Assembly: GCA_000091205.1 (NCBI GenBank)
Contig: AP006495.2
DNA from: Cyanidioschyzon merolae
Taxonomy: Eukaryota
DNA length: 64,000 nucleotides
Strand: one strand, 5' to 3'
The translations under genes were made by a program, and so were the position numbers. The notes under the pieces are model-generated. The model was not told the origin of the DNA, did not search any database, and saw only the letters and a list, made by a program, of their open reading frames with translations. Positions 2,331-64,000 of the stretch are shown piece after piece. How positions within the stretch are numbered: position 1 is the stretch's first letter; each line of letters starts with the position of its first letter.

Positions 2331-2938
2331 GTGGAAGATGGCCGTGTGTGGACTAGAACTCTTTTTTCGCGGCTGTATCCAGCTTTTTCAAGTTCAAACG
2401 AGTGAACTGGTGGGAAAAGAGACGCCCCTGGAGGCTGCTATCGCCGCTTTTGCTTCCCGTACGGTAATCAACGCGTCGTATCCTAAGATTTTCCTCAAGA
2501 AGTTTTTAAGAATATAGGTTTATGGCGCGGATTGCATGTTCTTGGTTTCTTTTGCGTTCCTCATCCATCAGAGTACTGTGGAATGACTGACCCGAAAAGG
2601 GGATGCAGCCCTCCTTGCACAGTTCAGTAAAGAATATATCCTACATTCAATTGGTCTACGATATATACAGTACATTCCATTCTGAAGTCCTTCTCCTAGT
2701 ATACACCGCTGCGGGATGGAACAGATGTGAGTTGGAAGAATACACCACAACGTTGGTGTAGTGCCCTTGGCGGCAGTGCGAACCCTCTGCGAATAACAAG
2801 GTGGCGTGGAAACGCGTCTGCCTGCGTTCAAAGATTCAAGTCTTTCTCAGGTGTTCTGGTTAGAGTCTGCAACTTGTTTCCAACACAGCTGTGATCCCTT
2901 TCGTGCACCGGTACAGGTGCTGCTGGCCTCCGGGTGGC

Positions 2939-3919: not shown

Positions 3920-3932
3920 ACTTTTCTGGAAC

Positions 3933-5075: not shown

Positions 5076-6256
5076 TGCTGTCGATTGGGCCTCGTCGTCG
5101 AGCGGCCTTGTGCGCGTGGCCGCTTTTCGAAGATGCACTTCCCCAGTTAGCGGGCAGCGACTCGTCGTGCCGTCCCGTACACGTTGCCAACTCCCGGGGA
5201 CACTCGCAAATAGGACAGACACGAGCAGACCCAGCAGCAGGAAGATTGCACAGGGCAATAGACCATCCAATGGGCATCTTACTCGGCTGACGCCATCAGT
5301 TCTTTAATGGTTTAGGATTGTCGAATCGAATCGGCGATCCCAAAGTGTGGAATTTTGATCGGCATTTGGGCGACTCTGTCGTTGCCGCTTGCACGCAGAG
5401 CCGCCAAGCTGATGCTCCTCTCCGAGTGCACCGATGGTGTCGCACATATTCTGTGCGAGAGCGCGCCCAAGCGGGTAGATGCAGCTCGTCATTTTGTATG
5501 CAAACATCGCAGGGAGCGATTGCACCCCAAACACTTTTCGCTCAAGTTTCTTGATTTCGACTGTGCATCGTGTACGCGTCTTCGGGAAAGCCGCACCAGC
5601 GACGCATCTAGTCCAGTTGCATCTGCGCCATCGATGGGGCAAGGTGTAGGCTCTCTACATGAAAACTGCTAGGTCTCTGGATAACACACTGAACTGCATA
5701 GAGCATTCTCCCGTTATCGTACGCCAGGAAAGAGAGCTTGTAAAAGGCGGCGCTTCCGCCGTGAACGCTTGCTTACAGTTCGCACACGCACGTGCACGCC
5801 GGCACGTGCTGCGACGCCCTGAAACGACGGCGCTTCGGTCAAGCGCGACTCGAACGTTTCACACCAGTGAATAAGAGACATCACTGGTGATCTATATGAA
5901 CAGAGCCAGGCACCGCTTAAACCGTCAGAAACGAACGTTGCACTGTCGTGGGCAGCGCCAGCGTCTTGCGCCAAAAATCTTCTATGCACCTTGGCTCTTT
6001 TTTGAGGCAGAAGTCCTACAACCAAAAAGTGTTTTTGGAATAAGTCCGGAACCGATTCCGTCGCACTGGGTTTCAGTTGTCTCGCTGCACACCATTACTG
6101 TGGTGGTCGTAGGGACGCCGTGCGGGAGCAGGGCATCATGACGCAACGCGTTGCGGGGGACGCACTCGCATGCTTTGTTTTCGGGCGTAGTGGTCGATGC
6201 TGCTCTCGAATGGAGATTCAGGCGCTCGCCTTGCGCTCTCACGACGCATCAGCTCG

Positions 6257-7636
6257 TTAGGTGAGAAACAAATGCAACGTCTTGCAGGTTCGAGTGTCGG
6301 TATCTGTTACGGATAGCACGACTTGATCGGGAACTTTCGGATGACTGTCAGAAATGAAGATATCGCTCAACGGCCGCTCGAGATTCGGGCTTGTTGCTGC
6401 TTTGAGGCTTTGAGGTACGCTCATGTATACGGGTCGATAATCCCAGACAATTGTGGGACTGCGACAGTGGAGCACAGGATGCCTTTCTAGGAGTTCTATG
6501 AGCTCCTTGACAAGCATGTTTTTCGATACGCTTATGGCAACAGCGGAACCTGGACCACATACAGGACACGATAGTCGTCTCTCGATGAAAATCGAGTCGA
6601 TGTAGAGGCCATCGCTTCCATGAAAACTTGTCCAGGGGCACTGTGCATGAGAGCCGCCCCATACGAGCCTCGTCACTGCGAGTGCACAGGCGGCACCGGT
6701 AACTGCACTCGTTGTCGCCAATGCCGGCACACTGCGGTGCAGGACAGCTTTCACGAGAGCCGTGGTCACACCTTCGATACCGAACGCTGCAGCACGCTCC
6801 TGTGCTCTGGTATAAATCCATTCAAGATGCTCCGGGTTCTCCGGGTCTATGGACCGCACCGCCTGGTCGTCACGTGCAGGCCAAAGAACCGCCTGTGCGT
6901 AATGAATACAGTGCTCTGGCCGCAATGGTGTACCGGCGATCGTGCAAAGCGGTTGCCGACCTGCTTCATCTGGAAACAGATCAAGTATGCACTCGATGCA
7001 GGGCGTTTCATACGGGCGAATCGTTCGGACTTGGCCTGCGAGACCCTCCAGGCCCCCGTCGATGAGCACGGGCAAGTATTTCGACTGAACTGCACAGTTG
7101 GGAGAGGTAACAGGACGTACCACGTGGAACACGACTGTGTTTAACCAGCGGCGAGCCTCAACGGTATCCACACCCGACACGATGACATCAAACGCACGGT
7201 AGAAGGCAACAGGCATCTGTTCCGCGCTCGCCCAATATCCGCGTATTGTGCAGCCTGGAAAGCGCTCTTTAATTGCCTGGGCAGCTCTCAGCGCTTTGCT
7301 GGCACCAACGTCGGCGGAGCTGTAGAGCGTCTGGCGGTTGAGGTTGCTCTCGGCGACCGTGTCCCGGTCGAGCACCACCAGGTTTCGGAAACCACACAAG
7401 GCAAGCGCCCTCAGCGCTTCGCAACCGATCGCCCCCGCACCAACCACCAGAATTTGTAGGTTTGACTTGGCATGCTTCATTCGTACGTCAGTGGTGCATC
7501 GAGTCAGTGCTTCCGGTGCAAGAGCCGCTGGACCGGCGTCATCGGCGTGCGCCAAGAGCTCCGGGGCCGAGTGAGCTGAGCTTGCGTGCATGAAACGACA
7601 ACCCACGCTGGTGCATAGTTGGAAGTATAGGCGCAC
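6257..7636 (-). CDS. UBA3: NEDD8-activating enzyme E1 catalytic subunit (UBA3)
   Basis: ThiF/MoeB fold with ILVVGAGAIGCEALRALALCGFRNLVVLDRDTVAESNLNRQ. Catalytic-Cys region PLCTIAGTPLRPEHCIHYA matches UBA3 PMCTIASMPRLPEHCIEY. C-terminal E2-binding domain ends LHLFLT. Length is 459 aa. Confidence 0.85.
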   Translation of the reverse strand: MRLYFQLCTSVGCRFMHASSAHSAPELLAHADDAGPAALAPEALTRCTTDVRMKHAKSNLQILVVGAGAIGCEALRALALCGFRNLVVLDRDTVAESNLNRQTLYSSADVGASKALRAAQAIKERFPGCTIRGYWASAEQMPVAFYRAFDVIVSGVDTVEARRWLNTVVFHVVRPVTSPNCAVQSKYLPVLIDGGLEGLAGQVRTIRPYETPCIECILDLFPDEAGRQPLCTIAGTPLRPEHCIHYAQAVLWPARDDQAVRSIDPENPEHLEWIYTRAQERAAAFGIEGVTTALVKAVLHRSVPALATTSAVTGAACALAVTRLVWGGSHAQCPWTSFHGSDGLYIDSIFIERRLSCPVCGPGSAVAISVSKNMLVKELIELLERHPVLHCRSPTIVWDYRPVYMSVPQSLKAATSPNLERPLSDIFISDSHPKVPDQVVLSVTDTDTRTCKTLHLFLT

Positions 7637-8939
7637 TAGCCTAATACTTTCATATGCATATAACGGCCTGAACTTGGTATGAAGACGTCACTTGGTAAGC
7701 AACGCCAGGAAGAGAGCACTTGAGACTTTCTTGGACCGCGGTTCAGCCTCAGCGGTCAATGACTGGGCAATTACTCGAACGGCATACATCGCCCAGCGTT
7801 CTGTGCTGCAAGAGCGGTTAGGCCGGGCCCATCGCCGGTTGTTTTACAGAGAGCATGCGAATTTTTCATTCACAAGGGTCTCTTCTGCTTCGGTTTCGTA
7901 AGTTATATACGAGCATTCTCTGCTTGAATTTTGGACGGGTTGTTCTCCGTAAAACGACTGCCTTCGCTGCTCTTCGACCCGATCACGAAAAAGCCATCCA
8001 GAGTGCGAAGCAATCAGCGTTTGCGTTTGCTTCCATCGTGGACCGCCCTTACAAAGCACTTCTACGTCGGAACTGCTCACCGTCTCGATTCCCATTGAGC
8101 AATCGCATCCTTGAAGCATACTTCGCAGCGCGTTAGCACCGACGTGTTCCAGACATCGCAAAGGAATGGGGGAGACATTTTTCCGCCGTGAAGCACCAGT
8201 CGCTTGCTTGTCGGAAGTTTTCCCCGATCATGCTGGGAATGTCGCCATGCTGATTTCCGTCTGGACGGCAACTCGCCACCGGCGAGTCCAAAATCCCGCG
8301 TTTCAGCCAACCTGAGCCTCATGCGCAAAGAGCTGGAGGCGAATTCCGGCTAAATGCAGATGCGCCTCTCGAATTGGCCCAAGGCAAGAGGAGCCCAAAC
8401 CGACTGGCGAGCGTATGTCAAGCCCTGTTCAGCGGGTATTCTCCGTCGATCCCATGGCTGCGCATGAGGCGGTGTCGCCACAGTCGCTCTGTAGCAGAGC
8501 AGCGTAAATCGAATCGTACTAGTGTAAACTAGCGACAGCGCTGAAAGCATGCCGCACAATTTTGGATCCTTTTCCATATACCAATGCGTATTCGTCGAAA
8601 TCGATTGAAACGCTATCGTCTAAATGCCCCGTTCGAGACCGGATACCGGGGCCAGCGGCTTTACGCAACAATCGCATGGAACTGAGCACACGAGAATTGA
8701 ATCGCCAGCCCCAGCATACAGTCTGAGGCCTCGAGCCTCCTACCAGACAGACTGTCATGTTCGAGAGCCTCTATAAGGGCGTGCCTGTCAGCCTAAGCGC
8801 TAGACGCCAGCGGACAACATCTCAATGCAGCATGCACGCCATTTCGCATCACATCTGTGCTGGATGCGATCGCTTCGAAGCGGCATCTATCCGTGCACCG
8901 TATTTTATACACAATCCGTGGCCTCCATTTCCAGATTCC

Positions 8940-11050
8940 GCTCCCAGATCATACTCTGTTCGCGTATGTGTTCAAGCATGCACACACACAAAACGCCGTT
9001 CTAAAGTTGAGCGTCGCCGGCAGTGCACAGTCGTGGCGGTGAACACGCCCTAGACATAGCGTCTTCAACTGACGTGCAGACGCCTCGCAGCCGTTCTGGA
9101 CCGGCCATCTAGTACTGCCTTCAACTTTCTCTCATATAATTCCACCTTGAGAGGCTGCCCCAGTAAATGCGCTCTTGTAAACTCTTAAGGTCTTCTTTCC
9201 ATCACCGCACATCTTCTTATATTGATAGCGGCATTAAAGTTCGGTTCACTAATCCCATCCGTTTCTTGCCGTCGGTAGTTGTACTCACCAGCGCAAGTAG
9301 TCCTCGAACTTTCGCTCTCCTTTCCATTTGCTCTTCTGTCAACGCTCCGTACTTTGCTATATCCTCAGGGCTCCGCTGGCACTTTTCCATCTCGACCCTC
9401 TGAGGTGTGCCCCCCAACTCGTAAGGCGTATAGGACGTTCAGATCCCATCTATCGGTATCGTAACAAAACGCTTTGCACACTCCTTGTACGTTCTTGTCG
9501 TTGGAGCTGGCTTAGTCCCTTTTTTGGTCATCCAGCGACCTGCTCCGTATGCTACTACGAGCCTCTGAATCTCGTCCTCTTTGAGTGCGCTCAACTAATT
9601 GAAAATTTTCGCAAACGCGCGCTTTTTCCCACTGTACAAGTTCATACGCAGACGTGCCCACTGGGGCTTTGTATATTCTTTCTACAGCGCCTCCCAATGA
9701 GCAACGCGAACTTTCATGAATTTCAGAAAAGCTTGAAAGTCCGTTCCTCGGCTCGTCACCTCGCTCAAAGCTTCCACGTGCTCTTTCACTCCTGCATTCC
9801 ATCTCTCAATTTTCTTCCTTGCATTCATGATTCCCGATTCTCGGTAGTATCTCGCTCTCGAGAACCTCAACAGACGCATGTCTTTCTGACGTAATTTGCC
9901 GTCAGTACCATCTTCAGCACGCTTCGGTACAGCGATGATTATGATATTCGTGATTCCGGGGTCAGCGCTAACGATAAAGTCGTTCTCATGCACTTTCTGC
10001 GTCATAGGAACCGCCTTCTTCTTATCTTCATGCTCCGCTGAAGGCAATTTCGAAGATGAAACAGGACGATCTGCCTCCAACCGACGAGAATGAACACACT
10101 TGGGTACCCCATCGGTTTCGAACATCCACGCAAATACCTTTTGCTTGCTCACTCTCAGACGTTTGAAATCGAAGATATTCTTCCAGTGCGTCTCCCGGTT
10201 TTAACCGGTGAACTCCTCCCTGCTGACATTGAACTCAGGACTGATCTCCTTAATGATGCCATGAAGGACTCTGGAGTCGATAGTCACAGATGTGACTCAA
10301 TGTTGTACATTGCAACCGCTTTGAAGCGCTTCCCCATTAGGGCGGCCTTCCGTCTCTCCCAGTCTTCATTTTTTTCCTCACTCAGCCTCATGTCTGCTTT
10401 GCATTCGAGCTCTCGATCCAGGAATACGAAATACTGCAGGAGAAGCCGATAGTATCTTTCCTTATCTTTTTTCAACTCTGATTTCTTTTCTGCAGGATTC
10501 GCCAGCCCCAAGACTGCACGATGCTCTTGTATAGCTGCGCGGATGACGGAATCCTCATTTGTGCTCCTGCGTGACGCCTTCTTGTCGAAGAATTCGATCT
10601 CACCTTCATACTGTCGATTGTTCGTAATGGCATTGATAATCGTCCATATCCCTTTGCGAGAGAAGCCCCGATAGAGTGCAAAGACAGAGCGTATTATGGA
10701 GCGTTCGAGTTTCACGATCACGTGGTTCTTCAAGTTCGTCAGGTACATCTTCGCCCCGTCCAAATTTATTCTGAGACTAGAAGCGGGTGTGCTGTGTCCG
10801 GGCATAGCCCTGGTCGGGTTGGAATCCCAGTATATGGCTTCACGTTGCCGCAGGCAGTGCGTCTGTATGCACAGCTGGAGGCTCCCAGGTTGATTATGCG
10901 CTACGGCCCCGTGTTGAATGAACCACGGCTCGAAAAGACGCCCCCACTGGTATGGCAAAGCTTCTCTGTCTCCGTCCTGCATCCGCACCGGCGGTTTAGG
11001 CTCTATTGCGCATGCTCACTCCGGGCTCGGCGCACGATAGAACATATGAA
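8940..11050 (-). mobile_element. TnpB/Fanzor-like repeat family, copy C (diverged, frameshifted; element coding strand is minus)
   Basis: ORFs 10284..10988(-) and 9682..10152(-) are homologous to ORF1/ORF2 of the 58-60 kb copy. RuvC-I DFIVSADPGITNIIIIA is near 9962, the Arg-rich linker is RLLRFSRARYYRESGIMNARKKIERWNAG, and the RuvC-III-like KCQRSPEDIAKYGAL is near 9360. The 3' non-coding tail is 8940-9217. Confidence 0.6.
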
Positions 11051-11511
11051 ACGACCACTAGTCCCGAAAGAAAGTTTATGAAACGGAACTTGAAAGTAGG
11101 TGCATCGTGATGGACGCTTTTTCGTTTACCGTTACCCTTCCATCCCGAAATCCGGTATCGATGGTCCATGGAAACGTTTTCTCATCGGAAAAATCATCGG
11201 TGCCAAGTCCATTTGAAAAGTTTTGAATGGAGCCGCGGTTCCGCTGCATATCGAAGCGAAGGCCGCACGTGATCTGGAGGCGCTCATACTTTTCTCAACT
11301 TTTTCTTGTCGAGACAACGGACCAGAGAAGTGAAGGATCCACGTTTGTTCGTCCTTTGCTTCGCGGTCGTGGTTCTGAAAGGCACCTGTTGTTGCCTCGT
11401 TCCGAGTGCGCTGGGTAGGAGCCAAAGCTTGTGCACAGTTCGCTAGACTGAGGGAGCACGCTACTCGTTGTTCTCGGTTAAAAAGCGGATTGGATTCGGT
11501 TTCTAGGTGCA

Positions 11512-13062
11512 ATGGCAGCGGTTACCGATACTTTGGGCTCACGACTCGAACTTGAGCGGCGTATTGTGGTTCATATAGATATGGACTGCTTCTACGCTCA
11601 GGTCGAACGGAAACGCCTCGATTTAGCTGAGGACGTCCCGCTTTGTGTCGTCCAGTGGAACAGCATTCTTGCTGTGAGCTACGCAGCTCGAGCAGCAGGG
11701 ATCAAGCGAGGTGCAACACCGCAGGAGGCCAAATCCAAGTGCCCCGAGTGTGTGCTTGTACACGTAGAAACCGTTGATGCTGCCGGAAGGAAACCACAAG
11801 TCTCTGAACTTGACCTGTCTGAGGAAGCCTCTATAGTGCGAGCCGCGAACACCGTCTGCTTAGATCGATATCGGTTGGAGTCCGAGAAGATTTTTGGGAT
11901 TCTCTCCCGCTTTAGTGACGCCGTTGAGCGCTGCTCAATTGACGAAGCTTTCATAGAGCTTACGGACGTGGTCGATGATTTCGACGAGGCAGTCCGTTTG
12001 GTACAGCGCATGCGAGACGCTATCCTTGATGAGCTTAGATACACCTGCAGCGCTGGGGTTGCCTGCAACAAAATGCTCGCTAAGTTCGCTAGCTCTACGA
12101 ACAAACCGAACAAACTGACCGCCATACCTTGGAGCGAGACGAACTCCATTCTCGCCAGGATTCCGCTTTCACGGGTTCGCGGGCTTGGTGGCAAATTCGG
12201 AGCTGAGCTGCAGCGGAACTTTAAGGCCGAAACGCTCGCTGACTTGTCGCAGCTGTCGATGGCAGCGCTGCAGGCCGCATACGAGCCCTGCACAGCGGAA
12301 TGGCTCTTCTGGCTGGCTCGGGGTTATGATCCCAGTCGAGTGGAGCCACGTGATCGTCCGCGGAGTCTGCTAGCGGCGAAATCCTTTGCCCCGGTAGATA
12401 CCTGGCAGGATGCGCGCCGCATCCTCTTCCTGCTGGCAACTCGCCTAGAGCAGCGTATTGAACGCGATACCAGTATGCATCATCGTCGACCGAGAACATT
12501 GTGCGTATCTTTTACTTCTGCGCAAGCGGGACTCCAAGGTCAACGGCATCATCATGCAAGTCGTTCTGGGCCATTTCCAACCTGCGCGAAAGAGGACGCA
12601 GCCGCAAGCATTGCAGAAGGTGCTGAGAAGCTGCTGCGGTCGATACGGTCTGGTTTTCGATTCCCATGCAAGCGCTTTATGCTGGAAGCGACGAACTTTC
12701 AACCCATCGCAAGCGGCGCCTATTCCATACGTTCTTACATGGGCAAACCGGGTAAGCGCGCGCTCAAAGCTGACGTGCCCTCGGGCGGCATCGCAGAATG
12801 CGAGCGCGAGCAGAACCCCATATCTGGGTACGCACCGGCAGCGAGAAATGAATGCAGTTTCGCGGGTGCCACGCCGACACCCGAGCGCGAGCACCAAGGC
12901 ATCGCAAATGCGAAACTAGTTCTTCGGGCTGGCAGTAGCGTTAGCGGTAACGAGGCGCTCGTGAGTCACTGGAAGCGTCACTGCGGAGGTGCGACCAGAC
13001 GCATTCATGACGGCTGTATTACTTGCTACTTTTCGCAGCCGAAGCGCTCTGAAACTCGTTGA
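11512..13062 (+). CDS. POLH: Y-family DNA polymerase eta (RAD30/POLH-like)
   Basis: VVHIDMDCFYAQVERKR, then VVQWNSILAVSYAARAAGIKRG, then CPECVLVHV match the pol eta palm/fingers signature (VALVDMDCFFVQVEQR...VVQYKSWKGGGIIAVSYEARAFGVTR). Thumb/little-finger region follows. Confidence 0.75.
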   Translation: MAAVTDTLGSRLELERRIVVHIDMDCFYAQVERKRLDLAEDVPLCVVQWNSILAVSYAARAAGIKRGATPQEAKSKCPECVLVHVETVDAAGRKPQVSELDLSEEASIVRAANTVCLDRYRLESEKIFGILSRFSDAVERCSIDEAFIELTDVVDDFDEAVRLVQRMRDAILDELRYTCSAGVACNKMLAKFASSTNKPNKLTAIPWSETNSILARIPLSRVRGLGGKFGAELQRNFKAETLADLSQLSMAALQAAYEPCTAEWLFWLARGYDPSRVEPRDRPRSLLAAKSFAPVDTWQDARRILFLLATRLEQRIERDTSMHHRRPRTLCVSFTSAQAGLQGQRHHHASRSGPFPTCAKEDAAASIAEGAEKLLRSIRSGFRFPCKRFMLEATNFQPIASGAYSIRSYMGKPGKRALKADVPSGGIAECEREQNPISGYAPAARNECSFAGATPTPEREHQGIANAKLVLRAGSSVSGNEALVSHWKRHCGGATRRIHDGCITCYFSQPKRSETR

Positions 13063-13304
13063 ACATTCGCATAGATCTTGATTCTTGCAAATCTAAACTT
13101 TTTTGTATGTAGTTGAGTAGCGATACGAGATGCTGCATGGATCGCGCGGGGGCGAGCGTTTCAGTGAATTCCGTCGTGGGCATTGCCAAATGAGCAGCTA
13201 AAAACCAACGATATGGCGATAGGTGCAGACTTAGCGCCCATGATAGAGCCGGCGCCACAGAAACTAGACTGGAACGCTAGTGAAGCACGAGGTTGTCGGC
13301 GGGG

Positions 13305-14660
13305 CTACGGACGAAGAACGAACAGCGCTCCGCGCGGGTATAGCTCGGCATCTTGCAATGTCATCTGATCCAACTCGTGCTCCAGAAATTTCCGCCTAGG
13401 ATAGGTACGCATCAGCGAGATCCGCTCTCCCAAGCTCGGGTAATTGTTGAGTACGTAATTTGCCACATCACGAAGGCGTGTTTCATTGGTGAAGTCCGCT
13501 TCAACATTCGTACCGTCGGGCAACCGCAATTGCAGACGTGTGGGTCTGGTTTCCAATTCTGATTTTTCTACCGCCTTTGGTTGGTTTGTGTTCGGATCGG
13601 GTGGCTGTTCCACGAGGCGTACCGGAGTCGGACCCCGCTGGAGCTCGAGTCGACGCTGACGATCGTCTTCAAGCAGCCTCCGGAGCCGCTCTCGTTCCAT
13701 TTGCTGCTCTCGTTGTTCACGGAGACGTTCTCGAATGTCCCGCTTACGACGCTCTTCTTCCGCTTTGCGCTTGGCCTCCGCTATCTCCTTCCCACTTCGA
13801 ATCCGATTCTTTTCCTGTTCAATAGCGAGTTTCTTCTCTTCGGCCTCTCGCCGTTTCCGCGCTTCCTCTTGGAGCCGTTTCAACATAAGCTGCTTCTCCT
13901 CTTTGGATTTAGAAAGGAGATCTTCGGCGCCAGTGACTCGGACATCCAGCGCTGGGTCCAGCTTATCGATATTTGGATCCTCGTCGTGCGCGAAAATCCA
14001 CTCCATCGCCTTCTCCAAGGATTCATTGTCAGTTGCAATGCAAGCGTTCAAAGCGCGAGTGCGGGGAAATCCCATTGCTTGAAGCTCCTCAAGTATTTTT
14101 TCGGATACAAAGGTCGGCATCGTCTCGCTTGCTGATACAGGAAGCTGTCCCTCGCCCTGGCTCGCCCTGGCTCCAGCGGAACCAGCGGATCCCGTCGTGG
14201 TCTGCAAGCCGTCGGCAACTGCATTCGGACGCGCTATTGGTGTACCCGACGGCGTGCTGTTTGTCGTTGTGGCGGCTTTCGTGTCCTCACTCGTTGCTCT
14301 GGTGCCCAGCGTATGACCCGGCCCAGCAAACGCCACTGGCTGCGCCTGAGCGGCTACTGAACGCTCGAGCGCTGCAACATCCGCTCCCACAATTTCGTCC
14401 ACCTTGTTCCCGTTGAGAAAGAGCTGAAAAGTTGGCATAGCATGCACCCGGCAGAGCTGCGCAACATCTTGAACCTCATCAACGTTCACTTTCACAAAGA
14501 GAACCTGGTGAAACTTCGTTGCGAGCGAGTCTATGAACGGAGCCACCATTCGGCAGGGGCCACACCAGTCGGCGTAAAAGTCCACAACAACCAGTTGCTC
14601 TCTGGAACCATCAATGACGACGCGTCGAAATTCAGTCGCACTATAGATCTGTAACACCAT
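13305..14660 (-). CDS. Thioredoxin-UBA-UBX domain protein (p97/Cdc48 cofactor-like with an active thioredoxin motif)
   Basis: N-terminal thioredoxin fold with WCGPC. UBA-like helix bundle KILEELQAMGFPRTRALNACIATDNESLEKAMEWIF. Long Glu/Arg/Lys coiled coil. C-terminal UBX (LQLRLPDGTNVEADFTNETRLRDVANYV...RTYPRRKF...LYPRGALFV). Confidence 0.6.
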   Translation of the reverse strand: MVLQIYSATEFRRVVIDGSREQLVVVDFYADWCGPCRMVAPFIDSLATKFHQVLFVKVNVDEVQDVAQLCRVHAMPTFQLFLNGNKVDEIVGADVAALERSVAAQAQPVAFAGPGHTLGTRATSEDTKAATTTNSTPSGTPIARPNAVADGLQTTTGSAGSAGARASQGEGQLPVSASETMPTFVSEKILEELQAMGFPRTRALNACIATDNESLEKAMEWIFAHDEDPNIDKLDPALDVRVTGAEDLLSKSKEEKQLMLKRLQEEARKRREAEEKKLAIEQEKNRIRSGKEIAEAKRKAEEERRKRDIRERLREQREQQMERERLRRLLEDDRQRRLELQRGPTPVRLVEQPPDPNTNQPKAVEKSELETRPTRLQLRLPDGTNVEADFTNETRLRDVANYVLNNYPSLGERISLMRTYPRRKFLEHELDQMTLQDAELYPRGALFVLRP

Positions 14661-54744: not shown

Positions 54745-57138
54745 GCGACGCTTCGGGTGAAGTGAGTACCAGAGCGGCTGCGCTGGGTGACCCTGGGCTG
54801 CGGCCTTCGTTGCGCACAGCCTCACCGACGCATGCATCAATGGCAGGTTCTTCACATACGAAGAAAGATAGGTGGCTCAAGAATAAACTTTGCCGCACTT
54901 GGAGTGCCTTTCGAAGGGCTTTTGCGCTACAGGGCGGCGGCTGGCGTACCGAGCTCCGGATGCTAAGGGGCGCACGCGCTCGTCCAGCCTGTCGTGCATC
55001 TTGCGCTGCTGCGTGTTCCGGAACCGAGTCCTCCAGTGCAACGCAGACTCGCTCCTCGAAAGCGAGCGCCGGTGCCTCCTCAAGATTGTATTCGATATGA
55101 CCGTACGTTTCACATGAAGACTCATTATAGCATAGTAGCTGCTTGTGTATTCTTGGAGGAGGCCTTGTCAGGGAGCGACGGGTAGTCTCTGCAAGCTCAC
55201 AAGAGAGGTTCGAAGGCTTTGCGAAAAGCGTTGGCCGAGCTTGTTCCCGGATTATCGTTTCCAGGGTGGAGCTCGAAACAAGCTCCTGTGATGATGGCGA
55301 CCGACGGAATGTCCACGCGATTGTTCTTTACGTCAATTTTCCCTGAGTCAAACAAGATGACTTGTTTGCACCCTTCTAGGTAGATGTAGGAAAAGACCTC
55401 ATGGTGGACGTCGACCCCAGGTCCATGAACATGATCGCCGGCGCCGTATCTCTAAATCGAGAGAACGCAGCCAAGGACCTCGAAGGGAACGCAGATGACG
55501 GTGCTCAGCTTTATCAGGGCTCGTTCGTATTCGGAATCGGGCATGAATCGCATCGGGAGGCATACCATCAAGTGGAATGGCTGCATTGGGACCCAGATCA
55601 ACGCTTTGATCACCGTATCGAGGAGACAGAGGTGCTTTGGACGCTTCATGCAGCGCGTACGCATGTGTCCGAATCGCTCAAGCGGCGGAGCCTGTACAGG
55701 AGTACATCGGCCCAAGTCAGGATCATCAAAGGTTTCCGCTTGATGGATGCAAAAACCGTGCATTCGTCAACTCGCTCAATGAGTTGGCTAACGAATGTCG
55801 AACGCGTTGTTTGATGCTCGCCTGTGGCGCTGGACATGCTGCCGCGTGCCACGGCTGTGCTCTTGGTGCTCCAACGAGAGGATACAGCGGGTGCAGCAAT
55901 TGATTCTTTATGAATCTCATGGATATGTTCTGGGCTGTGTAATCGCATCACGAGCACGGATGCGCACTGAAAAGGTAGAGAAAACGAAAGTGAACAAATC
56001 GGATGTGCGAGATGCTGTACGGTGAGCCGAACAACCTGCAGATGACGAGGGCATCCAGTGCGAGAGGCGTGCTGTGGTGTCATGCCGCCAGCGATGCTGT
56101 GCGCAAGCACTTGCTGCCCCAAGGCTTCAACAACTCGATCGACAATAGGCATTGTCTCGTGCATCAGTAGCGTCCAATAGTTCGGTGTCCAGCGAGGCCT
56201 CGAAAGAGTCGTTTGGTACTCTCTCTCTGGGCACCGTGCTGAACTGCGGCTGACTTGGCATGAAAAATCAGTGTTTACGACTGAGGCCATGCGACACTTG
56301 CTTGCCAGGATCAACGCAGTGACATGGCACGTTTCAGGTATGTGGAGAGGCTGGAGCGCCTTGTTCACAAAGTGGGAACGAGATTTTTAGGCTATTGGCG
56401 AACGATCATGGGGCTCCCTTATTCGATACGTCTGCGTACAGCGAGTTGCGCACGACACGCGGAAAGTGGTTTGCAGATGCGACATTCGTACGTTTTCTTG
56501 AACTGACAGGGTTTTGGTAGGACGGTAAGCACCTGGCCACCTCGTAGCGGACCGGTCAGTCGTCTGAAGCTGATCTTCCCGCTCCATACGGCGCCTGCGG
56601 GAAATTAAAGGCAAATCGGTATCCCTCCCATCAGTCTCAGTCAGTAGACGCACCTCAGGTAGAAGCGATGATCATTTGCGGGCACGGACGCCTCAGCGCA
56701 TCGGACCCTAGCGAGTGCGCTCCGGACGGCGTATTGAATGGTGCGCGTCGTGGCGCTGGGCCTCCTAGCTTCGATGCAAGCTCATGGTGCCGAGCGTCGT
56801 GAATGCACAACGAATATCCAACAGGAGCGCCTTGGCCAGCGGATGTTTTACCAGTTTGTGCCCAATGACGCTGCGCATGCCGTCAGCGTCGAGCTGGCGA
56901 CGAATGCCCCCCTCAGCGATAGGCCTAATCAACCTCAGCTTCTGATGCAGGCTTCCCCGGTAAGCGCACAGTCACGAGCGCCGATAGCGTCTGCGAATGC
57001 CCGCCTATGCCTGATGGACGCTGTTCCATTCGAATACGTGTTGCGGCCAGAGACAACCTCCAAAGCAGAGCCACGCTTCTGTATAAATACCCTGCTTTGC
57101 GTGCATTTGAACTCGAAAATGTTTCGGAGCACGCTTTC

Positions 57139-58077
57139 CTAGGTCCCCGGGATTGTTTCCCTTTTCTCGTCGTTCCAGCGCTGCTCGGCGCGGGCAGCAA
57201 ACGCGCGAAGCACACCAGGAACTTCTTTCATGATCTTGCGCTCAACCAGCGCTATCGGGAAGAGGATCATCGGAACCACGTCCAGCGCATACTCCAAACG
57301 AGTCTCTGTCTCGCTGCGCGGCACGATTCTATACACCCCTTTCCAAGATGCAAAGTCCCTGCTCTCTCGTTTCGAGAACAGGAGCTCGCCCTGCTCTGGT
57401 AGCATCTCAACTTCCATAACGAGTCGCGATTGCAGTCTCAGACGACGGCTGACCCAGGCGACTTGCTCGAGCAGTCGTGACTCCGTGTCAAAGCGCGACG
57501 AGAGCATATGCGGTACAAACTCGATCATTTCATCGAATGCCGTCAGCACCGTCCAGACGTGTGCCTTAGGTGCGAAAACGTTTAGCGATCCAGTGATCAA
57601 TCGCCGACGCGAGTCCAGCGAACGCAGTTCGACTCGCAGCTCCTCAGGCGGATCTGTCCGAAGCTCCCGCACAAGCGTACCGACTTGTTCGGCATCAGCG
57701 CTTGCTTTTGCCGACAGTGCTGTTCCATGAGCGCGCGGGCTGCGCGGGCTGCGCGGACTCGGAGGCGAGCTCCGCAACCAGCTGCGCGGCGAAAGAACAA
57801 AACCCATGCTCTGGCGGGTATAGCAAGGACTGGCGTCTATCGGTGGTACCCCCTGTTTACTCACGAGCATATTGCCGGGAACTGGTGTTGAACAGAAACC
57901 GACTGCTCGGTCACTGCAAACGTCGGCACGCCGTCCCACCACCATCAACACGAACAGCAAACGCTTTTCAAAAGAAAAACGTTGCTGCCAGTGGTACAGT
58001 AGTGGCGAGTGTCCCGCCCTAGACAAGACGACGCCAACTGATGTGCAGACGCCTCGGAGGATTTCTCGGCGGGCCAT
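57139..58077 (-). CDS. SRPBCC/START-like (polyketide cyclase/dehydrase-type) domain protein. The N-terminal part of the ORF overlaps TE-derived sequence, so the true start is probably an internal Met.
   Basis: Weak pattern match only, with alternating beta-strand/helix character around VWTVLTAFDEMIEFVPHML...WKGVYRIVP...LEYALDVVP. No catalytic motif identified. Confidence 0.3.
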   Translation of the reverse strand: MARREILRGVCTSVGVVLSRAGHSPLLYHWQQRFSFEKRLLFVLMVVGRRADVCSDRAVGFCSTPVPGNMLVSKQGVPPIDASPCYTRQSMGFVLSPRSWLRSSPPSPRSPRSPRAHGTALSAKASADAEQVGTLVRELRTDPPEELRVELRSLDSRRRLITGSLNVFAPKAHVWTVLTAFDEMIEFVPHMLSSRFDTESRLLEQVAWVSRRLRLQSRLVMEVEMLPEQGELLFSKRESRDFASWKGVYRIVPRSETETRLEYALDVVPMILFPIALVERKIMKEVPGVLRAFAARAEQRWNDEKRETIPGT

Positions 58078-58209
58078 GTACGAATGCTTTCAATCTTGTC
58101 TCATATAGTTCCACATTGAGAGGGTGTCCCACAAAGTTCTCTCCTGTCCACGATGGGGGCTTCTTTCCATCACCGCACATTTCCTTCCACTGCATGCGGC
58201 GTTCAAGTC

Positions 58210-59244
58210 TCAATGCACAAACGCTATGCGTTTCTCGCCATTCGTAGTTGTACTTTCTAATGCGAGCAATCCTCGAACTTTCGCCCTTCTTTCCATTTGC
58301 TCTTGCGTCAGCGCTCCGTACGTTTGTATATTACCAGGGCTCCGCTGGCACTTTTCTTTCTCGACGCTCTGAAGTGTACACCCCAGCTCGTGGCGTGTAT
58401 ACGATGTTCGGAACTTATCTACAGGTATCGTGACGAAACAGTGTGCGCACTCCTTGTACGTTCTTGTCGTCGGGGCTGGCGTCGTTCCTTTTTGGGTCAT
58501 CCAGCGCCCTGCCCAATAAGCTACTATGAGCCTCTGACTTTCATTCTCCTTCAGGGCGCTCAGCCGATTGAAAAAGTTCGCGAACGCGCGCCGCTTCCCA
58601 CAGTGTAGATTCATTCGCAATCGAGCCCACCGGGGCTTTGGAAATTCTTTTCGCAGCGCCTCCCAATGAGCAACGCGAACTTGCATGAATTTCATAAAAG
58701 CTTGAAAGTCCGCTCATCGGATCGTCAGTGCGCTCAAAGCTGCCAGGTGATCCTTCATTCCTGCGTTCCATGTCTCAATTTTCTTCCTCGCATTCATTAT
58801 ACCGGATTCTCGAGAATATCTAGTTCTTGAGAACCTCAACAGACGCAAGTCGCTCTCACGTAAGTTGCCGTCAATGCCATCTACCGCACGCTTCGGTGCT
58901 GCGATGGTCATGATATTCGTATTCCCAGGGTCCGTGCCAACGACGAAGTCGTTATCCTGCACTTTCTATGTCGCAGGATCCGCCACCTTCTCATCTTCAT
59001 GCTTCGCCGCGTCAACGACGAGGCCCTTGTCATGCACCTCCTGTGTCGCGGGATCCGCCTCCTTCTCATCTTCATGCTTCACCGCCTCAACGACGAGGCC
59101 CTTCTCATGCACCTCCTGCGTCGCAGGATCCGCCTCTTTGATTTCTTCATCCTTCGTGACGGGCGCGGCCGAGGGCGGAACTGGACGATTTATCTTCAAC
59201 CGCCGATAGTGTACACACAAAGCTACTCCATCGGTTTCGATCAT
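58210..59244 (-). pseudogene. TnpB/Fanzor-like RuvC nuclease ORF (OMEGA-type), disrupted by in-frame TAG at 58966-58968 and a stop at 58714-58716
   Basis: Ruv[19 protein letters not shown] (D near 58931). Arg-rich linker RLLRFSRTRYSRESGIMNARKKIETWNAG. RuvC-II-like VRVAHWEALRKEF (E near 58661). Zinc-ribbon TTRTYKECAHC (near 58445). Degenerate RuvC-III region KCQRSPGNIQTYGAL. Spacing is about 90 aa from D to E and about 70 aa from E to CxxC, as in ISDra2 TnpB. Confidence 0.55.
58970..59165. repeat. 75-bp (25-aa) intragenic tandem repeat, about 2.6 copies, inside ORF2 of copy A (single copy in copy C)
   Basis: gtcgcaggatccgcc... recurs at 58970, 59045 and 59120, encoding ADPATQEVH(E/D)KGLVV(E/D)A(V/A)KHEDEKE repeats. 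Confidence 0.85.
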
Positions 59245-61479
59245 CCCCGTGGATACATTTCGCTTTCTGACTTTGAGACTTTTGAAATCGAAGATATTCT
59301 TTCAGTGCGTCTCATGGTTTTCGCCAGTGAAGTCCTCTCTGCTAACATTGAACTCGGGACTGATCTCCCTCATGATGCCGTAAAGGACGCCGGAATCGAT
59401 ACTCACAAAATGTGACTTGATGTTGCGCATTGGAACGACGTTGAAGCGCTTACCCATTAGGATAGACTTCCATCTCTCTCACTCTTCATTTCCACCTTGC
59501 GTTCGAGCTCTCGGTCCAGAAACACGAAATATCGCAGGACAAGGCGATAGGATCTTTTCTTATCTTTTTTCAACTGTGATATCTTTTCTGCTGGATTCAC
59601 CAGCGCCAGCGCCGCACGGTGCTCTTGTATAACCGCACGGATGACAAAGACCTCATTCGTGCTCTGGTTTGACGCCTTCTCGTCGACGAATTCGATCTCA
59701 TGTTCATGCTTGCGATCGTTCCTTATGCCGTTGAGAATCGCCCGTATCCCTTTGCGAGACATGCCCTGGTAAAGTGCAAACACGGCGCGTATCATGAAAC
59801 GTTCGACGTTCATTGTCAAATGATTCTTCAGGTTCGTGACGCACTTCATCGCCCCGTATGCGTAGATATCCCAGTCACCCTTGTATCGAGTACCGTTGAT
59901 GCTGTAAAGGGTATTTCTCGTGGAGGGCGTGATTCCGCTCATTTTCCCTCCGCGCTTCCCGCTGTACCATGCATCAGGTATCGAAAAAACGTCTTGTCGA
60001 AGGATTCGCCCGGAATCTCGACCGTTTCCATGTGCGCCACATCGCGATACATCTCCCTCGCCAAATGCATCCGTCCTGACGACGCCTTGAGAATACTCTT
60101 GGAGTACGAGTCGACACGGTTCCTAATGGCCTCTCGCAACTTTTCCCTGTACGGATCCTTGACATGTCCAACAAGACAGGCTTTCACCGCCATCTCGGAG
60201 TACAGTTGTCTTTCTTGCCGCCTTCGACGTAGGGCCTCCCTCTTTTGCTTCATTTTTTCTTCTTGTTCTTCTGAACTCGGCACTGTTTCTTGTTTTTTTT
60301 TCTGGCAGCCAGCGACACTGAGCCTCAGGATCGTCGACTTGCTTTTTCATAACTTTCCTTTTTTAGGTTTTGTAAAAAGAACGCTTTTGAACGCTTCTGT
60401 TATAATCCGCAAAAAATCAATCGAACATTTTTACTTGAGGTTTGAAACACAAATGAAACCGAAAAACTGTACTTGGCTATGAACTCAACGAGAATACAAC
60501 TTTTACATCAGAGCTACACGCTAGAAATCACGATCACGTTTCCCGTCAACGGAGGCATACGCGTCGTGTCAGTTTACTGCCTGATCTCCCAGTTGCGCTC
60601 ACTGAGCGCGATGCGTGCACCTCGCCAGACGCCTCACCGATCGATGAAGGACACGTGTCCGACGCCGCATTGGCATATGCGTGTTCGCATCGCGTTGCAG
60701 CGGAAATAAAGTATCGTAGATCGGAAATTCACGCAGAGTAGTCTCTCGCTATAGGCTATGTCGCTGGTGCCGACGCTGCTACCCATCGCAGTACCGCCTT
60801 GACAGACATGTAGATGTTGGGGCCTTGCAAGAAACCCCTCGACGCTTCTATCAAAAGCGTAGCCATCGTAGTATCCTACGATCGTGCGGGTGAGGTATGC
60901 ATCACTCTACTCAATAGGAGTTTCGTTAGTTTTATTGATCGTAAACAAACAAGGCATAGTAGTGTTCCCGAACACGGATATGCGTTTAATCCCTGTGCTT
61001 GTTATGCAGGCTGCACGGACGCTGGGATGAGAAACTGGTTTGAGTTGTGCTTCTATCCTGCGTCATGGGCAGGTACTGATGGCAGGTCAAGTCATTGCCA
61101 TGCTGCCGTCGTTGTCCAAGTTATGATATCCGCTACTCTCTCGGATCCGGTGATCTCGGCAGAGGAATAGCGCACATGTAGCGTGCAGATGTATCACGGC
61201 GTTTGACTGACGCATCTCGCCTGGCACGTTCGAAGCATCCGCTAAAAGCGCATACTGTATTCTGGTCTATTCTCACCGTTTACTGGCAAGAGCCTAAAAT
61301 GTAGATAGCGGTGCAATCGTCAAACCGTGAACTTTTCCGTACCCCCGCCGCTCCATATGCTCCCGGATGCTCGGTGGCTGCCTGCTGGTTTCCCACTCTC
61401 ACCAGCAAAACTGCAGAACGGAAGGATTTTCTTTCTATCTTTTACCGTTCAATGACTGGAAACCGTTTCACGACCATGT

Positions 61480-61600
61480 AGGGTAAATTCATATCCACTC
61501 ACAGACGCCTCCCGGTCTTTTTGGACTGGCCAACAACTACTGTTTCCAACTTGTCCTTGGACAAGTTGGCAGTAGGAGGCTGTCCCACAAAGTCGGATCG
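61480..61600 (-). mobile_element. Short isolated fragment of the repeat-family 3' tail containing a perfect 11-bp palindromic hairpin
   Basis: cagacgcctc...(about 75 nt)...gaggctgtcccacaaagt mirrors 58046...58128 (gtgcagacgcctc...gagggtgtcccacaaagt). Includes ccaacttgtcc ttggacaagttgg. Confidence 0.5.
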
Positions 61601-62959
61601 CGTCAGCTCCGCCGGTCGCGCCTCCATCGTCATTCATCCGTTGATACTGATCGTGTTTTGTCTAAAACGCTTGTGATAGAGCTGAGGTCAAGAGGCGATC
61701 AATTTTGACCGACGCTATCACACGATCGGTACCAGAAGCTAAGGGCTGCAGCCGGCACCAGGTGCTCTTGTGACGGCATGCTGGCCGTGAAGAGTGCGTG
61801 ACGAAGCCGCATGGCACGCGAGGGTGTCCTAGTACATAAAACGAGGACGTGCCCGAGACGTTCAGATTCAGGGTAATGACGAGTCGCCGCTACGGTATTC
61901 TGGGAAAATAATCCGAGTGAGCTTTTGTTGCTCGAACATCGAGCACTATCACGAGTGTGGGTGCGTTTCACTGCACGGTTTGTAACGATCATAGAATCCA
62001 CCATCATCCAAAAGCGACGAAATGTCATACGCGCACCGGCCTCGTAAATCCAGGTCAGGACGTGCCCAGCAGCACGGAAACAAATTACGTGAACTGCTGT
62101 GCTTGCACCGAACGAAAGGAAGCATGCGTTTCCTCGACCGAAGATAGAGGCTTCCGAATTCATTCAGATACTGCCGATGTTTCGCCCGAACCCAGACCAC
62201 CATCTGCAATGTGCCCAAGACCATACACAGGATGCCTACGATTGTTTGCATCATCAAGTTAAGTCCTACTCACGCCAGTACCTCAGATATATAGTTCGGA
62301 CACGACACATGCTCGAAATGGAAGCCGTATGGGGTTTGCCGCAGGCGCCAACGGCACACCAGGTTGCCCGGCTCACCCGTGCCATTGCACACCACGCTTA
62401 TCCAAAACTCGGCTGCAACTGTAGCAGCGGCATCGCCAGCGTGTATGCATCGGCGCCATAGGATTTTTCATTGAGAAAACGTTTCCATTGACCATGGATC
62501 CCAGATTGCCGGATGGGCGCAGACATACGGGAAATCACTCTTTATGTTGTACCCTTATTTCTAGTTCCATTCGCGATTGTTCCTCTCGGATATACTGGTC
62601 ATTTTGCAGGTTATATCGTGCGCCTAGTGCGTGCCGTGCCTAATCCGCCTTGGCGCCTGAACCGCTGGAGCAGATATTTTTGGTAAAGACTGAACTGCTT
62701 TTCCGTACCGCTGAGGGTGTCGGATCAAGGAACGCTTCGTCTGATGTGGAGTAGGAGCACGTGATCATTCCGGGAGCCTGAAAACTGGGAGACATACGAT
62801 CTTTCTGCGACAGCGCGAAGCGATATACTAGGAGTGATCAACGACCAGGGTGATGCCCCGTCGCAGCATACCCGCTCCTAGTCCCAGAATAAAGTGCATT
62901 GCGAACGAGTTGCTCAGATTTAACCAAAGTACCTGTCACTGGGGCGGACATGAAGCGCA

Positions 62960-64000
62960 AGCTTGGGAACCTGTCTTCTTAAATATATCAAGGATCCGTA
63001 CAGGGAAAAGTTGCGAGAGGCCATTAGGAACCGTGTTTACTCGTACTCCAAGAGTATTCTCAAGGCGTCGTCAGGACTGATGCATTTGGCGAGGGAGATG
63101 TACCGCGACGTGGTGCACATGGAAACGGTCGAGATTCCTGGCGAGTTCGTCGACAAGACGTTTTTTCGATACCTGAAGCATGGTAGAGCGGGAAGCGCGG
63201 AGGGAAAATTGAGCGGGATCACGCCCTCCACGAAAAATATCCCTTTTACAGCTTCAAAGGTACTCGATACAAGGGTGACTGGGATATTCGCAGCTACGGG
63301 GCGATGAAGTGCGTCACGAACCTGAAGAATCATTTGACAATGAACGTCGAACGTTTCATGATACGCGCCGTGTTTGCACTTTACCAGGGCATGTCTCGCA
63401 AAGGGATACGGGCGATTCTCAACGGCATAAGGAACGATCGCAAGCATGAACATGAGATCGAATTCGTCGACGAGAAGGCGTCAAACCAGAGCACGAATGA
63501 GGTCTTTGTCATCCGTGCGGTTATACAAGAGCACCGTGCGGCGCTGGCGCTGGTGAATCCAGCAGAAAAGATATCACAGTTGAAAAAAGATAAGGAAAGA
63601 TCCTATCGCCTTGTCCTGCGCTATTTTCTGTTTCTGGACCGAGAGCTCGAACGCAAGGTGGAAATGAAGAGTGAGAGAGATGGAAGTCTATCCTAATGGG
63701 TAAGCGCTTCAACGTCGTTCCAATGCGCAACATCAAGTCACATTTTGTGAGTATCGATTCCGGCGTCCTTTACGGCATCATGAGGGAGATCAGTCCCGAG
63801 TTCAATGTTAGCAGAGAGGACTTCACTGGCGAAAACCATGAGACGCACTGAAAGAATATCTTCGATTTCAAAAGTCTCAAAGTCAGAAAGCGAAATGTAT
63901 CCACGGGGATGATCGAAACCGATGGAGTAGCTTTGTGTGTACACTATCGGCGGTTGAAGATAAATCGTCCAGTTCCGCCCTCGGCCGCGCCCGTCACGAA
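62960..64000 (+). mobile_element. TnpB/Fanzor-like repeat family, copy B, inverted relative to copy A. It is 5'-truncated near 62985 and cut by the window end inside ORF2.
   Basis: ORFs 62963..63307(+) and 63304..63696(+) match ORF1 of copy A at about 93% nucleotide identity, with a different frameshift (+1 t at ccctttTacag). 63870-64000 encodes [30 protein letters not shown] as in copy A. Confidence 0.65.

Follow-up and report, generated by a model that had tools for sequence, protein, structure and literature searches.

The 64,000 nt of Cyanidioschyzon merolae DNA analyzed here, which we call the window, contain two decayed copies of a Fanzor1 transposon (A and C) and two remnants of divergent copies (fragments D and E), all on the minus strand (Table 1). 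Copy A runs into a host gene for a COQ10/START-domain protein, whose annotated ATG (57945-57943) falls within the terminal 7 nt of the element. The window also holds a Pol eta ORF identical to C. merolae XP_005537147.1.

Table 1. Coordinates of the elements, their parts and the adjoining host gene
Feature	Position	Strand	Basis
Copy A, CMe-1A pseudogene	57939-61264	-	tblastn of family protein covers 58022-60283
Copy A, core	57939 to about 60614	-	Limits of between-copy similarity
Copy A, TE-N2-like 5′ module	about 60615 to 61264	-	5′ limits of similarity
Copy A, premature TGA (the "ORF2 stop" of the first-pass annotation)	58210-58212	-	CGA>TGA, Arg codon of RuvC-III motif RDxNAAxNI
Copy A, decayed coding sequence: RuvC-III motif and C-terminal tail of Fanzor1, one frameshift	58022-58209	-	Codon-guided translation, tblastn
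Copy A, ancestral Fanzor1 stop TAG	58019-58021	-	Inside the gccctagaca block
Copy A, small hairpin H1	58004-58018	-	RNAalifold
Copy A, long terminal hairpin H2	57939-58002	-	MFE folding
Host gene, COQ10/START-domain protein XP_005537163.1	57142-57945	-	Exact protein match; Pfam PF03364
Copy C, decayed C-terminal coding sequence	9053-9241	-	tblastn, residues 725-787 to 9241-9053
Copy C, non-coding tail with ancestral TAG (9050-9052)	8975-9052	-	Covariance model, 50.8 bits, E = 2.4e-12
Fragment D, C-terminal coding remnant of a divergent Fanzor1 copy	1989-2201	-	tblastn, residues 699-772, E = 9e-14
Fragment E, C-terminal coding remnant of a divergent copy	61502-61651	-	tblastn, residues 730-779, E = 2e-10

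By sequence comparison, copies A and C are assigned to CMe-1A, a Fanzor1 (eukaryotic TnpB) transposon of C. merolae 10D already described in that genome (Bao and Jurka 2013, Mob DNA 4:12, PMC3627910). The passages of that paper on CMe-1A put the copy number at about 150 and the identity of each copy to the consensus at ~80%, for an element of ~3 kb with no terminal inverted repeats (TIRs) and with a 635-bp 5′ module. As far as those passages go, we see no element-level difference from the window element and take the two to be the same family: both have a single Fanzor1 ORF, a length of about 3 kb and no TIRs, copies about 75-80% alike, and a separate 5′ module of ~635-650 bp (TE-N2_CMe). The 5′ similarity of copy A ends at 60612-60616 for most copies and at 61264 for L028 and L071, and these limits support the assignment since they match the ~3-kb element with its 635-bp module. 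The 3′ tail has no inverted counterpart at either of the candidate 5′ ends, in agreement with the same passages, and the element thus lacks the TIRs of TIR-bounded Fanzor1 carriers (Mariner, Sola, MuDR, IS4-like); a Helitron-type end was also rejected, for although a hairpin is present, the 25 aligned ends share no conserved CTRR-like terminus. Copies A and C are both present, with 97.6-99.5% identity, at every orthologous locus from other strains (L081-L090), and none of these offers an empty site by which the element ends could be fixed.

The conceptual protein of copy A retrieved 38 close relatives. A 40-sequence family profile matches the solved Fanzor1 structures PpFz1 (9cf0, E = 7.7e-19), SpuFz1 (8gkh, E = 3e-11) and GtFz1 (9cer, E = 2e-4), which bears out the earlier description of the ORF as a TnpB relative. 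Distant representatives had to be included in the profile to obtain these matches; a Pfam search with single ORF pieces and close homologs gave none, nor did a shallow profile searched against the PDB. The RuvC triad residues D232, E404, R472 and D473 are invariant in the 40-protein alignment and follow the TnpB order D...E...RD; the catalytic residues of the family motif RD..NA, including the Arg and Asp of RuvC-III, are invariant across it. Between RuvC-II and RuvC-III, where a C4 zinc finger would be expected, the sequence of the C. merolae proteins is TSYTHHELGCTLQRVEMEKCQR... and shows no obvious CxxC...CxxC; only 6 of the 40 family members match PF07282 (OrfB_Zn_ribbon/TNB). The triad is destroyed in both window copies, which marks them as pseudogenes: in copy A the Glu has become Lys (E>K, VDKFRTS) and the Arg a stop, and in copy C an E>G change is joined by a stop and by a frameshift within the D codon.

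The first-pass annotation took the TGA of copy A for the end of the ORF and the ~270 nt beyond it for a conserved non-coding tail, a candidate omega-RNA scaffold. For about 190 nt this description does not hold. The segment 58022-58212 is in-frame Fanzor1 coding sequence broken by a CGA>TGA change, and it looks non-coding in copy A because the Arg codon has mutated to TGA; a CpG mutation would account for the change. At RuvC-III copy A reads ...KRIAFVH, then the stop, then DLNAA, where its paralogs read ...FVNRDFNAAINI. About 30 paralogous copies and the predicted protein P0005 continue for about 63-64 codons past the position of this TGA, P0005 carrying the whole stretch that corresponds to 58022-58212, and codon-guided translation of 30 non-redundant copies remains in frame to ...RRLHxSWRRxV, followed by a common TAG. 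The family pattern over 58022-58209 is DLNAA...RPP..TRENFVGxPLNVELYE..L.A...RRLHISWRRLV; residues 740-787 of a family protein align by tblastn to 58165-58022, and distant homologs retain RPxxLxR and about 20 residues. The codon at the ancestral stop is TAG or TAA in most of 25 well-aligned copies. Defects occur in the terminal 135 codons of all copies examined except L001, whose stop codon is lost.

Copies A and C are indeed alignable below both ORF stops (57959-58399 of A against 8991-9432 of C, 75.5% identity), and both contain the 21-mer caactgaYgtgcagacgcctc (at 58035 and 9066; 0 expected by chance). However, the three shared blocks that had been read as non-coding conservation are all codons or the stop codon, and over about 190 of the ~270 nt the conserved segment proves to be coding sequence of a longer ORF, namely the RuvC-III motif and C-terminal tail of other copies, an outcome that the first-pass annotation had itself named as a refutation. 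An argument from the conservation of non-coding sequence fails for these 190 nt because they encode protein; the similarity between copies would reflect common descent from coding sequence. We see the main value of the analysis as corrective: a stop codon in a decayed copy had disguised catalytic coding sequence as a conserved non-coding element.

In copy C, which reads NFNAAINIRRCAV at RuvC-III, the loss of 1 nt from the RD motif's Asp codon gives rise to the "stop at 9217." The same tail had also been reported, without any ORF, at 1961-2330, and a short internal block of it at 61480-61600. Similarity at these sites is weak but real (about 1960-2160, score 87 against a shuffle maximum of 26; about 61500-61553, weaker, 42 against 26), yet what is similar is protein remnant (Table 1) and not tail. 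The 21-mer is absent from both intervals even with three mismatches allowed, and the covariance model finds the true non-coding tail in the window only in A (57941-58021) and C (8975-9052). Fragment D lacks a tail of the A/C type and has no covariance-model match. Beyond about 1960 in fragment D and beyond 61502 in fragment E, the only copy with similarity is L079 (down to 1912 and 61465, respectively); the tail of the D/E subfamily, shared by L079 only, is represented by too few copies to serve as an independent test of hairpin conservation. The palindrome described within 61480-61600 exists, at 61540-61565, but it lies inside the coding remnant and is private to copy E.

What stands of the proposed tail is its last ~80 nt. 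The true non-coding terminus of copy A is 58018-57939, on the gene strand between the ancestral TAG and the end of between-copy similarity. BLAST alignments of copy A to other copies stop between 57996 and 57940; the 3′ limit of similarity is at about 57940-57960, with background reached at about 57950-57940, and the right end of the element thus falls within the interval first proposed for it. Conservation is lower in the tail than in the coding part, column values dropping from 0.86-0.9 in the coding sequence to 0.6-0.75 across the tail; at positions below about 57950 the value is 0.43. Orthologous copies in five other strains show 1 change over 83 nt of tail and 14 over 309 nt of coding remnant, a difference that is not significant.

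This tail folds into hairpins that are more stable on the gene strand and have modest covariation support. The small hairpin H1 (GGCGGG-ACA-CTCGCC) lies directly 3′ of the stop codon, has about 88% of its cells paired, and shows changes on both sides in 3 of 7 pairs. The long hairpin H2 comprises 34 bp, including 6 G-U pairs; its 3′ arm is G/T-rich and its base is the 3′ end of the element. On the sense strand H2 has a minimum free energy of -37.1 kcal/mol (z = -6.1); the antisense strand reaches -23.3 kcal/mol (z = -2.6). A 101-nt fold of copy A reaches -45.1 kcal/mol (z = -4.63), and over 25 copies the mean z is -1.55 sense versus -0.65 antisense, about half of the copies folding no better than shuffled sequence. 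The inner stem of H2 covaries between two subfamilies. In a model-based alignment 87% of cells are paired, with 18 both-side changes against 8.8 +/- 2.2 in shuffles, values obtained on an alignment that was itself fitted to the structure of the model and drawing their signal mainly from those two inner-stem subfamilies. When arms were swapped between copies, native pairs (-23.1 kcal/mol) were more stable than chimeric ones (-19.8 kcal/mol; 1/10000 permutations); within each of the two subfamilies the native-arm advantage is weak (p = 0.036 and 0.11). RNAalifold recovers only a 3-bp stem from a plain sequence alignment of the tail and only short stems from MAFFT tail alignments, since sequence alignment fails for the G/T-rich 3′ arm. 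A search of Rfam gave no family match in 57700-58400. The covariation that had been proposed as a check on the whole interval has modest support in the ~80-nt tail and is not seen in hand-picked hairpins of the coding part.

As an overall account we consider it probable that the locus is the 3′ end of a dead CMe-1A element, consisting of a coding remnant and a hairpin tail of ~80 nt that is likely to have been an omega-RNA scaffold in active copies. Guide RNAs of other Fanzor proteins come from the 3′ non-coding region adjoining the right end (PMC10530073), and Fanzor1 omega-RNAs are encoded at the corresponding 3′ position (PMC10432273). The original placement of an omega-RNA at the 3′ end of the gene may accordingly be kept for the last ~80 nt, which fold, are biased toward the gene strand and occupy that position; the rest of the interval is coding, and it is only for the ~80-nt tail that we infer a guide-RNA role. 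Judging from characterized Fanzor1 loci, the terminal module most likely encoded the scaffold in active copies, and we infer by the same analogy that the tail was transcribed, was bound by Fanzor1 and had guide function. It would have been transcribed on the gene strand, with the guide read from ~15-20 nt of flanking DNA (about 57938-57920), and the same sequence was probably also a right-end cis-signal for mobilization. The flank beyond the tail varies between copies as a guide would, although any flank would do so too. Neither window copy need be functional in any part, both being pseudogenes.

A more specific version, which we advance tentatively, holds that a red-algal Fanzor1, whose element has neither inverted repeats nor a transposase of its own, has the ~80-nt module as its omega-RNA scaffold, that this scaffold may reach into the C-terminal codons, where codon periodicity is lost, and that the RNA hairpin doubles as the right-end signal. 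If true, a hairpin acting in this way would explain head-to-tail neighbors and 3′-only fragments.

Three other explanations start from the same hairpin or its surroundings. The hairpin might act at the DNA level instead of as an RNA scaffold, for example as a subterminal hairpin that a transposase provided in trans recognizes on single-stranded DNA, in the manner of IS200/IS605, Helitrons or Replitrons. Such a right-end signal would suit an element without TIRs (also so described in the CMe-1A passages of PMC3627910), a hairpin placed exactly at the element boundary, and the head-to-tail neighbors (L028:2-84, then a 5′ end at 136), which fit end-directed insertion. We nevertheless think it unlikely: the element encodes no transposase, it shows neither a matching hairpin at its 5′ end nor a CTRR-type terminus, and the stability of the hairpin depends on G-U pairs, the sense and antisense strands differing little with DNA parameters (-17.1 versus -14.7 kcal/mol). 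A DNA signal is, moreover, compatible with an omega-RNA, both functions overlapping in IS200/IS605.

Alternatively, the scaffold could reach upstream into the last ~50-60 codons, 58022 to about 58180 being both coding and scaffold, in which case the interval first proposed would be essentially right. Codon periodicity is gone over the final ~180 nt of the ORF, where the ratio of third- to first- and second-position variability is about 1.0 (2-3.6 in the RuvC core) and all positions are less variable than the tail (0.12-0.18 versus 0.33); a TAG right after RPPE is common to 5 of 25 copies, fragments D and E keep exactly the C-terminal coding part, and ISDra2 TnpB and GtFz1 provide a precedent for overlap with the coding region. 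Yet four hand-picked hairpins of the coding part show no covariation, their score being 0.102 versus 0.098 in shuffles, a value reached by 138 of 500 shuffles and resting mainly on three of the hairpins, since P3 was badly registered (47% of cells paired); and a coding control taken upstream has an RNAalifold consensus energy (-6.5 kcal/mol) close to that of this part (-9 kcal/mol across 213 nt). The third positions are not clearly less variable than those of the core, and relaxed protein constraint on the C-terminal tail explains the periodicity pattern. On balance, dual use of these codons seems to us quite doubtful.

It is improbable, in our judgment, that the hairpin has no function of its own and is an inherited palindrome or 3′-UTR feature of the ancestral element, now decaying. 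The copies that fold no better than shuffles and the nearly universal defects of the terminal 135 codons (L001, with its lost stop codon, excepted) would be expected of such a relic, but the inner stem is maintained by different sequences in two subfamilies, native arms pair better than chimeric ones, and the sense strand is favored. Finally, we give almost no credence to the whole ~270 nt below the 58210 stop being a non-coding omega-RNA scaffold found also as solo RNA modules, for although A and C can be aligned there and a location beside a TnpB-type gene is fitting, about 30 paralogs and P0005 carry the stretch as in-frame coding sequence, the "stop" is a CGA>TGA change in an invariant catalytic motif, and the solo fragments match protein and not the non-coding tail.

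The omega-RNA reading of the ~80-nt tail predicts that the gene-strand hairpin at the CMe-1A end is the guide-RNA scaffold of the C. merolae Fanzor1. The description of CMe-1A is older than the discovery of omega-RNA. C. merolae itself combines a very small genome with genetic tractability. The passages on CMe-1A in PMC3627910 describe neither a 3′ terminal hairpin nor a guide RNA, and we found no report of a guide RNA for this family in open-access PubMed Central papers or bioRxiv preprints. A TIR-less Fanzor1 with ~150 copies could help relate these nucleases to element mobility; the current picture of Fanzor biology would stay unchanged.

Among characterized systems, SpuFz1 of Spizellomyces punctatus (Saito et al. 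2023, PMC10432273; PDB 8gkh) belongs to a homologous protein family, and its omega-RNA, like the CMe-1A tail, lies on the gene strand and is a predicted stem-loop. The SpuFz1 scaffold spans a 30-nt inverted repeat, whereas CMe-1A has no inverted repeats, and SpuFz1 has ghost loci with the RNA module and no gene, whereas the window contains no solo tails of CMe-1A. Expression and protein binding have been demonstrated for the SpuFz1 omega-RNA; for the CMe-1A tail both are predicted. The omega-RNAs of ISDra2 TnpB and GtFz1 overlap the 3′ end of the nuclease ORF. Unlike that overlap, the coding tail of CMe-1A has no covariation support for a structure, although its last ~55 codons no longer show codon periodicity, as a coding overlap of this kind might entail. 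In position and in same-strand orientation, the omega-RNAs of both systems match the CMe-1A tail.

R-D-x-N-A-A-x-N-I is the RuvC-III motif of TnpB and Fanzor nucleases, so the "ORF2 stop" of copy A, a dead copy of the Fanzor1 transposon CMe-1A, is the Arg codon of that catalytic motif, altered by a CGA>TGA change; across the TGA at 58212-58210 the minus strand reads ...GEKRIAFVH*DLNAA. At the equivalent site copy C reads ...VNR and then NFNAAINIRRCAV, with a 1-nt deletion preceding, and its stop at 9217 comes after the reading frame has shifted in the adjacent Asp codon. From A, C and 28 further loci we built an alignment of 30 non-redundant 3′ ends and translated them guided by the frame of an intact reference. 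All 30 read ...FVNRDFNAAINIRRCAVLEKRPPExTRENFxGQPLKVELYEKKLEAVVGGRSKKTGRRLHxSWRRxV*, most with TAG or TAA at the position equivalent to 58019-58021. The entire C-terminal stretch is present in the predicted family protein P0005, and distant family members have about 25 further residues beyond the RP motif, with RETFIGQPL in P0042. What the first-pass annotation took for a conserved non-coding tail 3′ of ORF2 is indeed alignable between copies, but it is mostly coding, part of a longer ORF whose frame runs to a shared stop. The three shared blocks listed there are codons or a stop codon: gccctagaca comprises ...V-stop and the opening bases of a hairpin, and the other two, caactgaYgtgcagacgcctc and gagRgStgYccca, are reverse complements of the codons for RRLH(V/I)SW and VGQPL, respectively. 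In five of 25 non-redundant copies (loci L052, L056, L005, L039 and L014) the codon immediately following RPPE, at about 58140 in copy A, is TAG; many Fanzor1 proteins are near their C-terminus at this point.

The solo tail copies reported at 1961-2330 and 61480-61600 turn out to be protein remnants by tblastn (fragments D and E in the table), and a covariance model built on the genuinely non-coding tail misses both, its only matches in the 64-kb window being A and C. After the RRL codons, D and E have a common sequence that differs from the A/C tail and is otherwise found only in locus L079. The perfect palindrome noted earlier occurs in E alone, within its coding remnant.

Fanzor1 remnants and predicted hairpins in the window
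Feature	Position (strand)	Residues	Details
Fragment D	1989-2201 (-)	699-772	tblastn with family protein, E = 9e-14
Fragment E	61502-61651 (-)	730-779	tblastn with family protein, E = 2e-10
More divergent Fanzor1-like remnant	55492-56176 (+)	511-742	tblastn, 31-33% identity
H1	in tail 58018-57939 (-)		GGCGGG-ACA-CTCGCC
H2	58002-57939 (-)		34-bp hairpin, six G-U pairs, base = element boundary

The predicted fold of 58018-57939 consists of two hairpins, H1 and H2. A 101-nt RNA folds at -45.1 kcal/mol (z = -4.63, equalled by 0 of 200 shuffles), and the 83-nt tail reaches -37.1 kcal/mol (z = -6.1) in the sense orientation versus -23.3 kcal/mol (z = -2.6) in the antisense; averaged over 25 copies, z is -1.55 sense versus -0.65 antisense, with nine copies below -2.7. 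On plain alignments RNAalifold finds only short stems, because the G/T-rich 3′ arm is unalignable by sequence. When arms were swapped between copies, native 5′ and 3′ arms averaged -23.1 kcal/mol versus -19.8 for chimeras, and the native figure was reached by only 1 of 10000 permutations; the effect is weak inside each of the two loop subfamilies (p = 0.036 and 0.11). In a model-based alignment of 26 tails, which is fitted to the structure and whose copies share descent, so that its covariation is supportive rather than decisive, 87% of cells are paired (slid-partner controls, 32-66%), double-sided changes occupy 18 cells versus 8.8 ± 2.2 in shuffles, and the covariation score, 0.225 versus 0.161, was matched by none of 500 shuffles. 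These two tests, alignment-independent or structure-aware, lend the fold moderate support.

An omega-RNA element extending into the coding tail seems to us unlikely. Third- relative to first/second-position variability drops from 2-3.6 in the RuvC core to about 1.0 over the final ~180 nt of the ORF; the stretch without third-position excess is 58022-58180 (-), the last ~55 codons. This lost codon periodicity is compatible both with an overlapping nucleotide-level constraint and with a weakly constrained C-terminal peptide. Four hand-picked hairpins in the coding tail, of which one (P3) was poorly registered with 47% of cells paired, are without covariation (0.102 versus 0.098, with 138 of 500 shuffles doing as well), and the consensus folding energy there is close to the value for a coding control taken upstream. 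Only the last ~80 nt are, we suggest, a plausible omega-RNA module of CMe-1A. The earlier interpretation keeps its Fanzor right end and plausible omega-RNA module and loses its argument from conservation outside that segment.

Stitching copy A into one conceptual protein, we found 38 close relatives; a search of 1.84 billion representative proteins gave 1475 relatives. Neither a Pfam search with single ORF pieces and close homologues nor a shallow profile against the PDB gave a match. A profile of 40 sequences, distant relatives included, matched Parasitella 9cf0 (E = 7.7e-19), Spizellomyces 8gkh (E = 3e-11) and Guillardia 9cer (E = 2e-4), all of them solved Fanzor1 structures; D232, E404, R472, D473, N475 and A477 are invariant in the family alignment. 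Pfam PF07282 is matched by only 6 of the 40 members. The C. merolae Fanzor1 (predicted proteins P0001-P0005; window 58400-58330, -) has no obvious CxxC...CxxC zinc finger from RuvC-II to RuvC-III (TSYTHHELGCTLQRVEMEKCQR). Upstream of the RuvC-I motif lie three tandem 75-nt coding repeats (58932-59156, -), 77-85% alike, whose number varies among copies (P0001 versus P0003).

The element itself is already known. Bao and Jurka (PMC3627910) describe it as CMe-1A, a TIR-less element about 3 kb long with a Fanzor1 ORF and a 5′ module of 635 bp, which is found on its own as well, as TE-N2_CMe; they put the family at about 150 copies, each sharing about 80% identity with the consensus. In agreement, copies A and C are 76-79% identical, copy A spans 57939-61264 with the core common to most copies beginning near 60614, and no TIR was found. 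At 11512-13059 lies a Pol eta ORF identical to C. merolae 10D XP_005537147.1, and metagenome contigs match window 1511-14000 at 99.5% identity; the 78 related loci are thus paralogues belonging to this strain or a sister strain. Column conservation falls from 0.86-0.90 in coding sequence to about 0.75 near the stop, stays at 0.6-0.7 as far as 57951, and below that position is at background (0.43); where copy A is aligned to other copies by BLAST, similarity stops at points from 57996 to 57940. We sought an empty site in five other strains and found none, the insertion being present at all the orthologous loci.

Several junctions deserve mention. The annotated ATG (57945-57943, -) of a host COQ10/START-domain gene, XP_005537163.1, lies inside the last 7 nt (57939-57945) of the terminal hairpin (GATGGTGGTGG), and metagenome gene callers extend this ORF to 58077, within the Fanzor remnant (312-aa calls). 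In locus L028 one copy's 3′ tail (2-84) is followed after about 50 nt by the 5′ end of the next copy (136), and in the window remnant E (61465-61651) is followed after about 200 nt by copy A, whose 5′ end is at 61264; such head-to-tail neighbours may have arisen by end-directed insertion. At ~60614 the common core meets one or another of at least three unrelated 5′ modules (loci L001-L074), one of which is TE-N2-like; the point of joining is the same for all, and the palindrome GCGCTCGGTGAGCGC adjoins it. Copies A (59153-60180) and B (62970-64000) are mutually inverted and 96.7% identical over 1 kb, similarity breaking off sharply at 60180/62970, and other copy pairs are 75-80% identical, a pattern that points to gene conversion or to an inverted duplication of recent date.

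With the element already described, the part that would be new is the predicted guide-RNA module. No Rfam family matches the tail, and in open-access papers and preprints on Fanzor and Cyanidioschyzon we found nothing relevant beyond the 2013 description (PMC3627910). The omega-RNA of GtFz1 overlaps its ORF by 17 codons (PMC10432273), and RNAs bound by other Fanzors originate in 3′ non-coding sequence that directly adjoins the right end (PMC10530073). Although the CMe-1A tail is without an inverted repeat, unlike the SpuFz1 locus, it matches characterised Fanzor omega-RNAs in position, strand and size.
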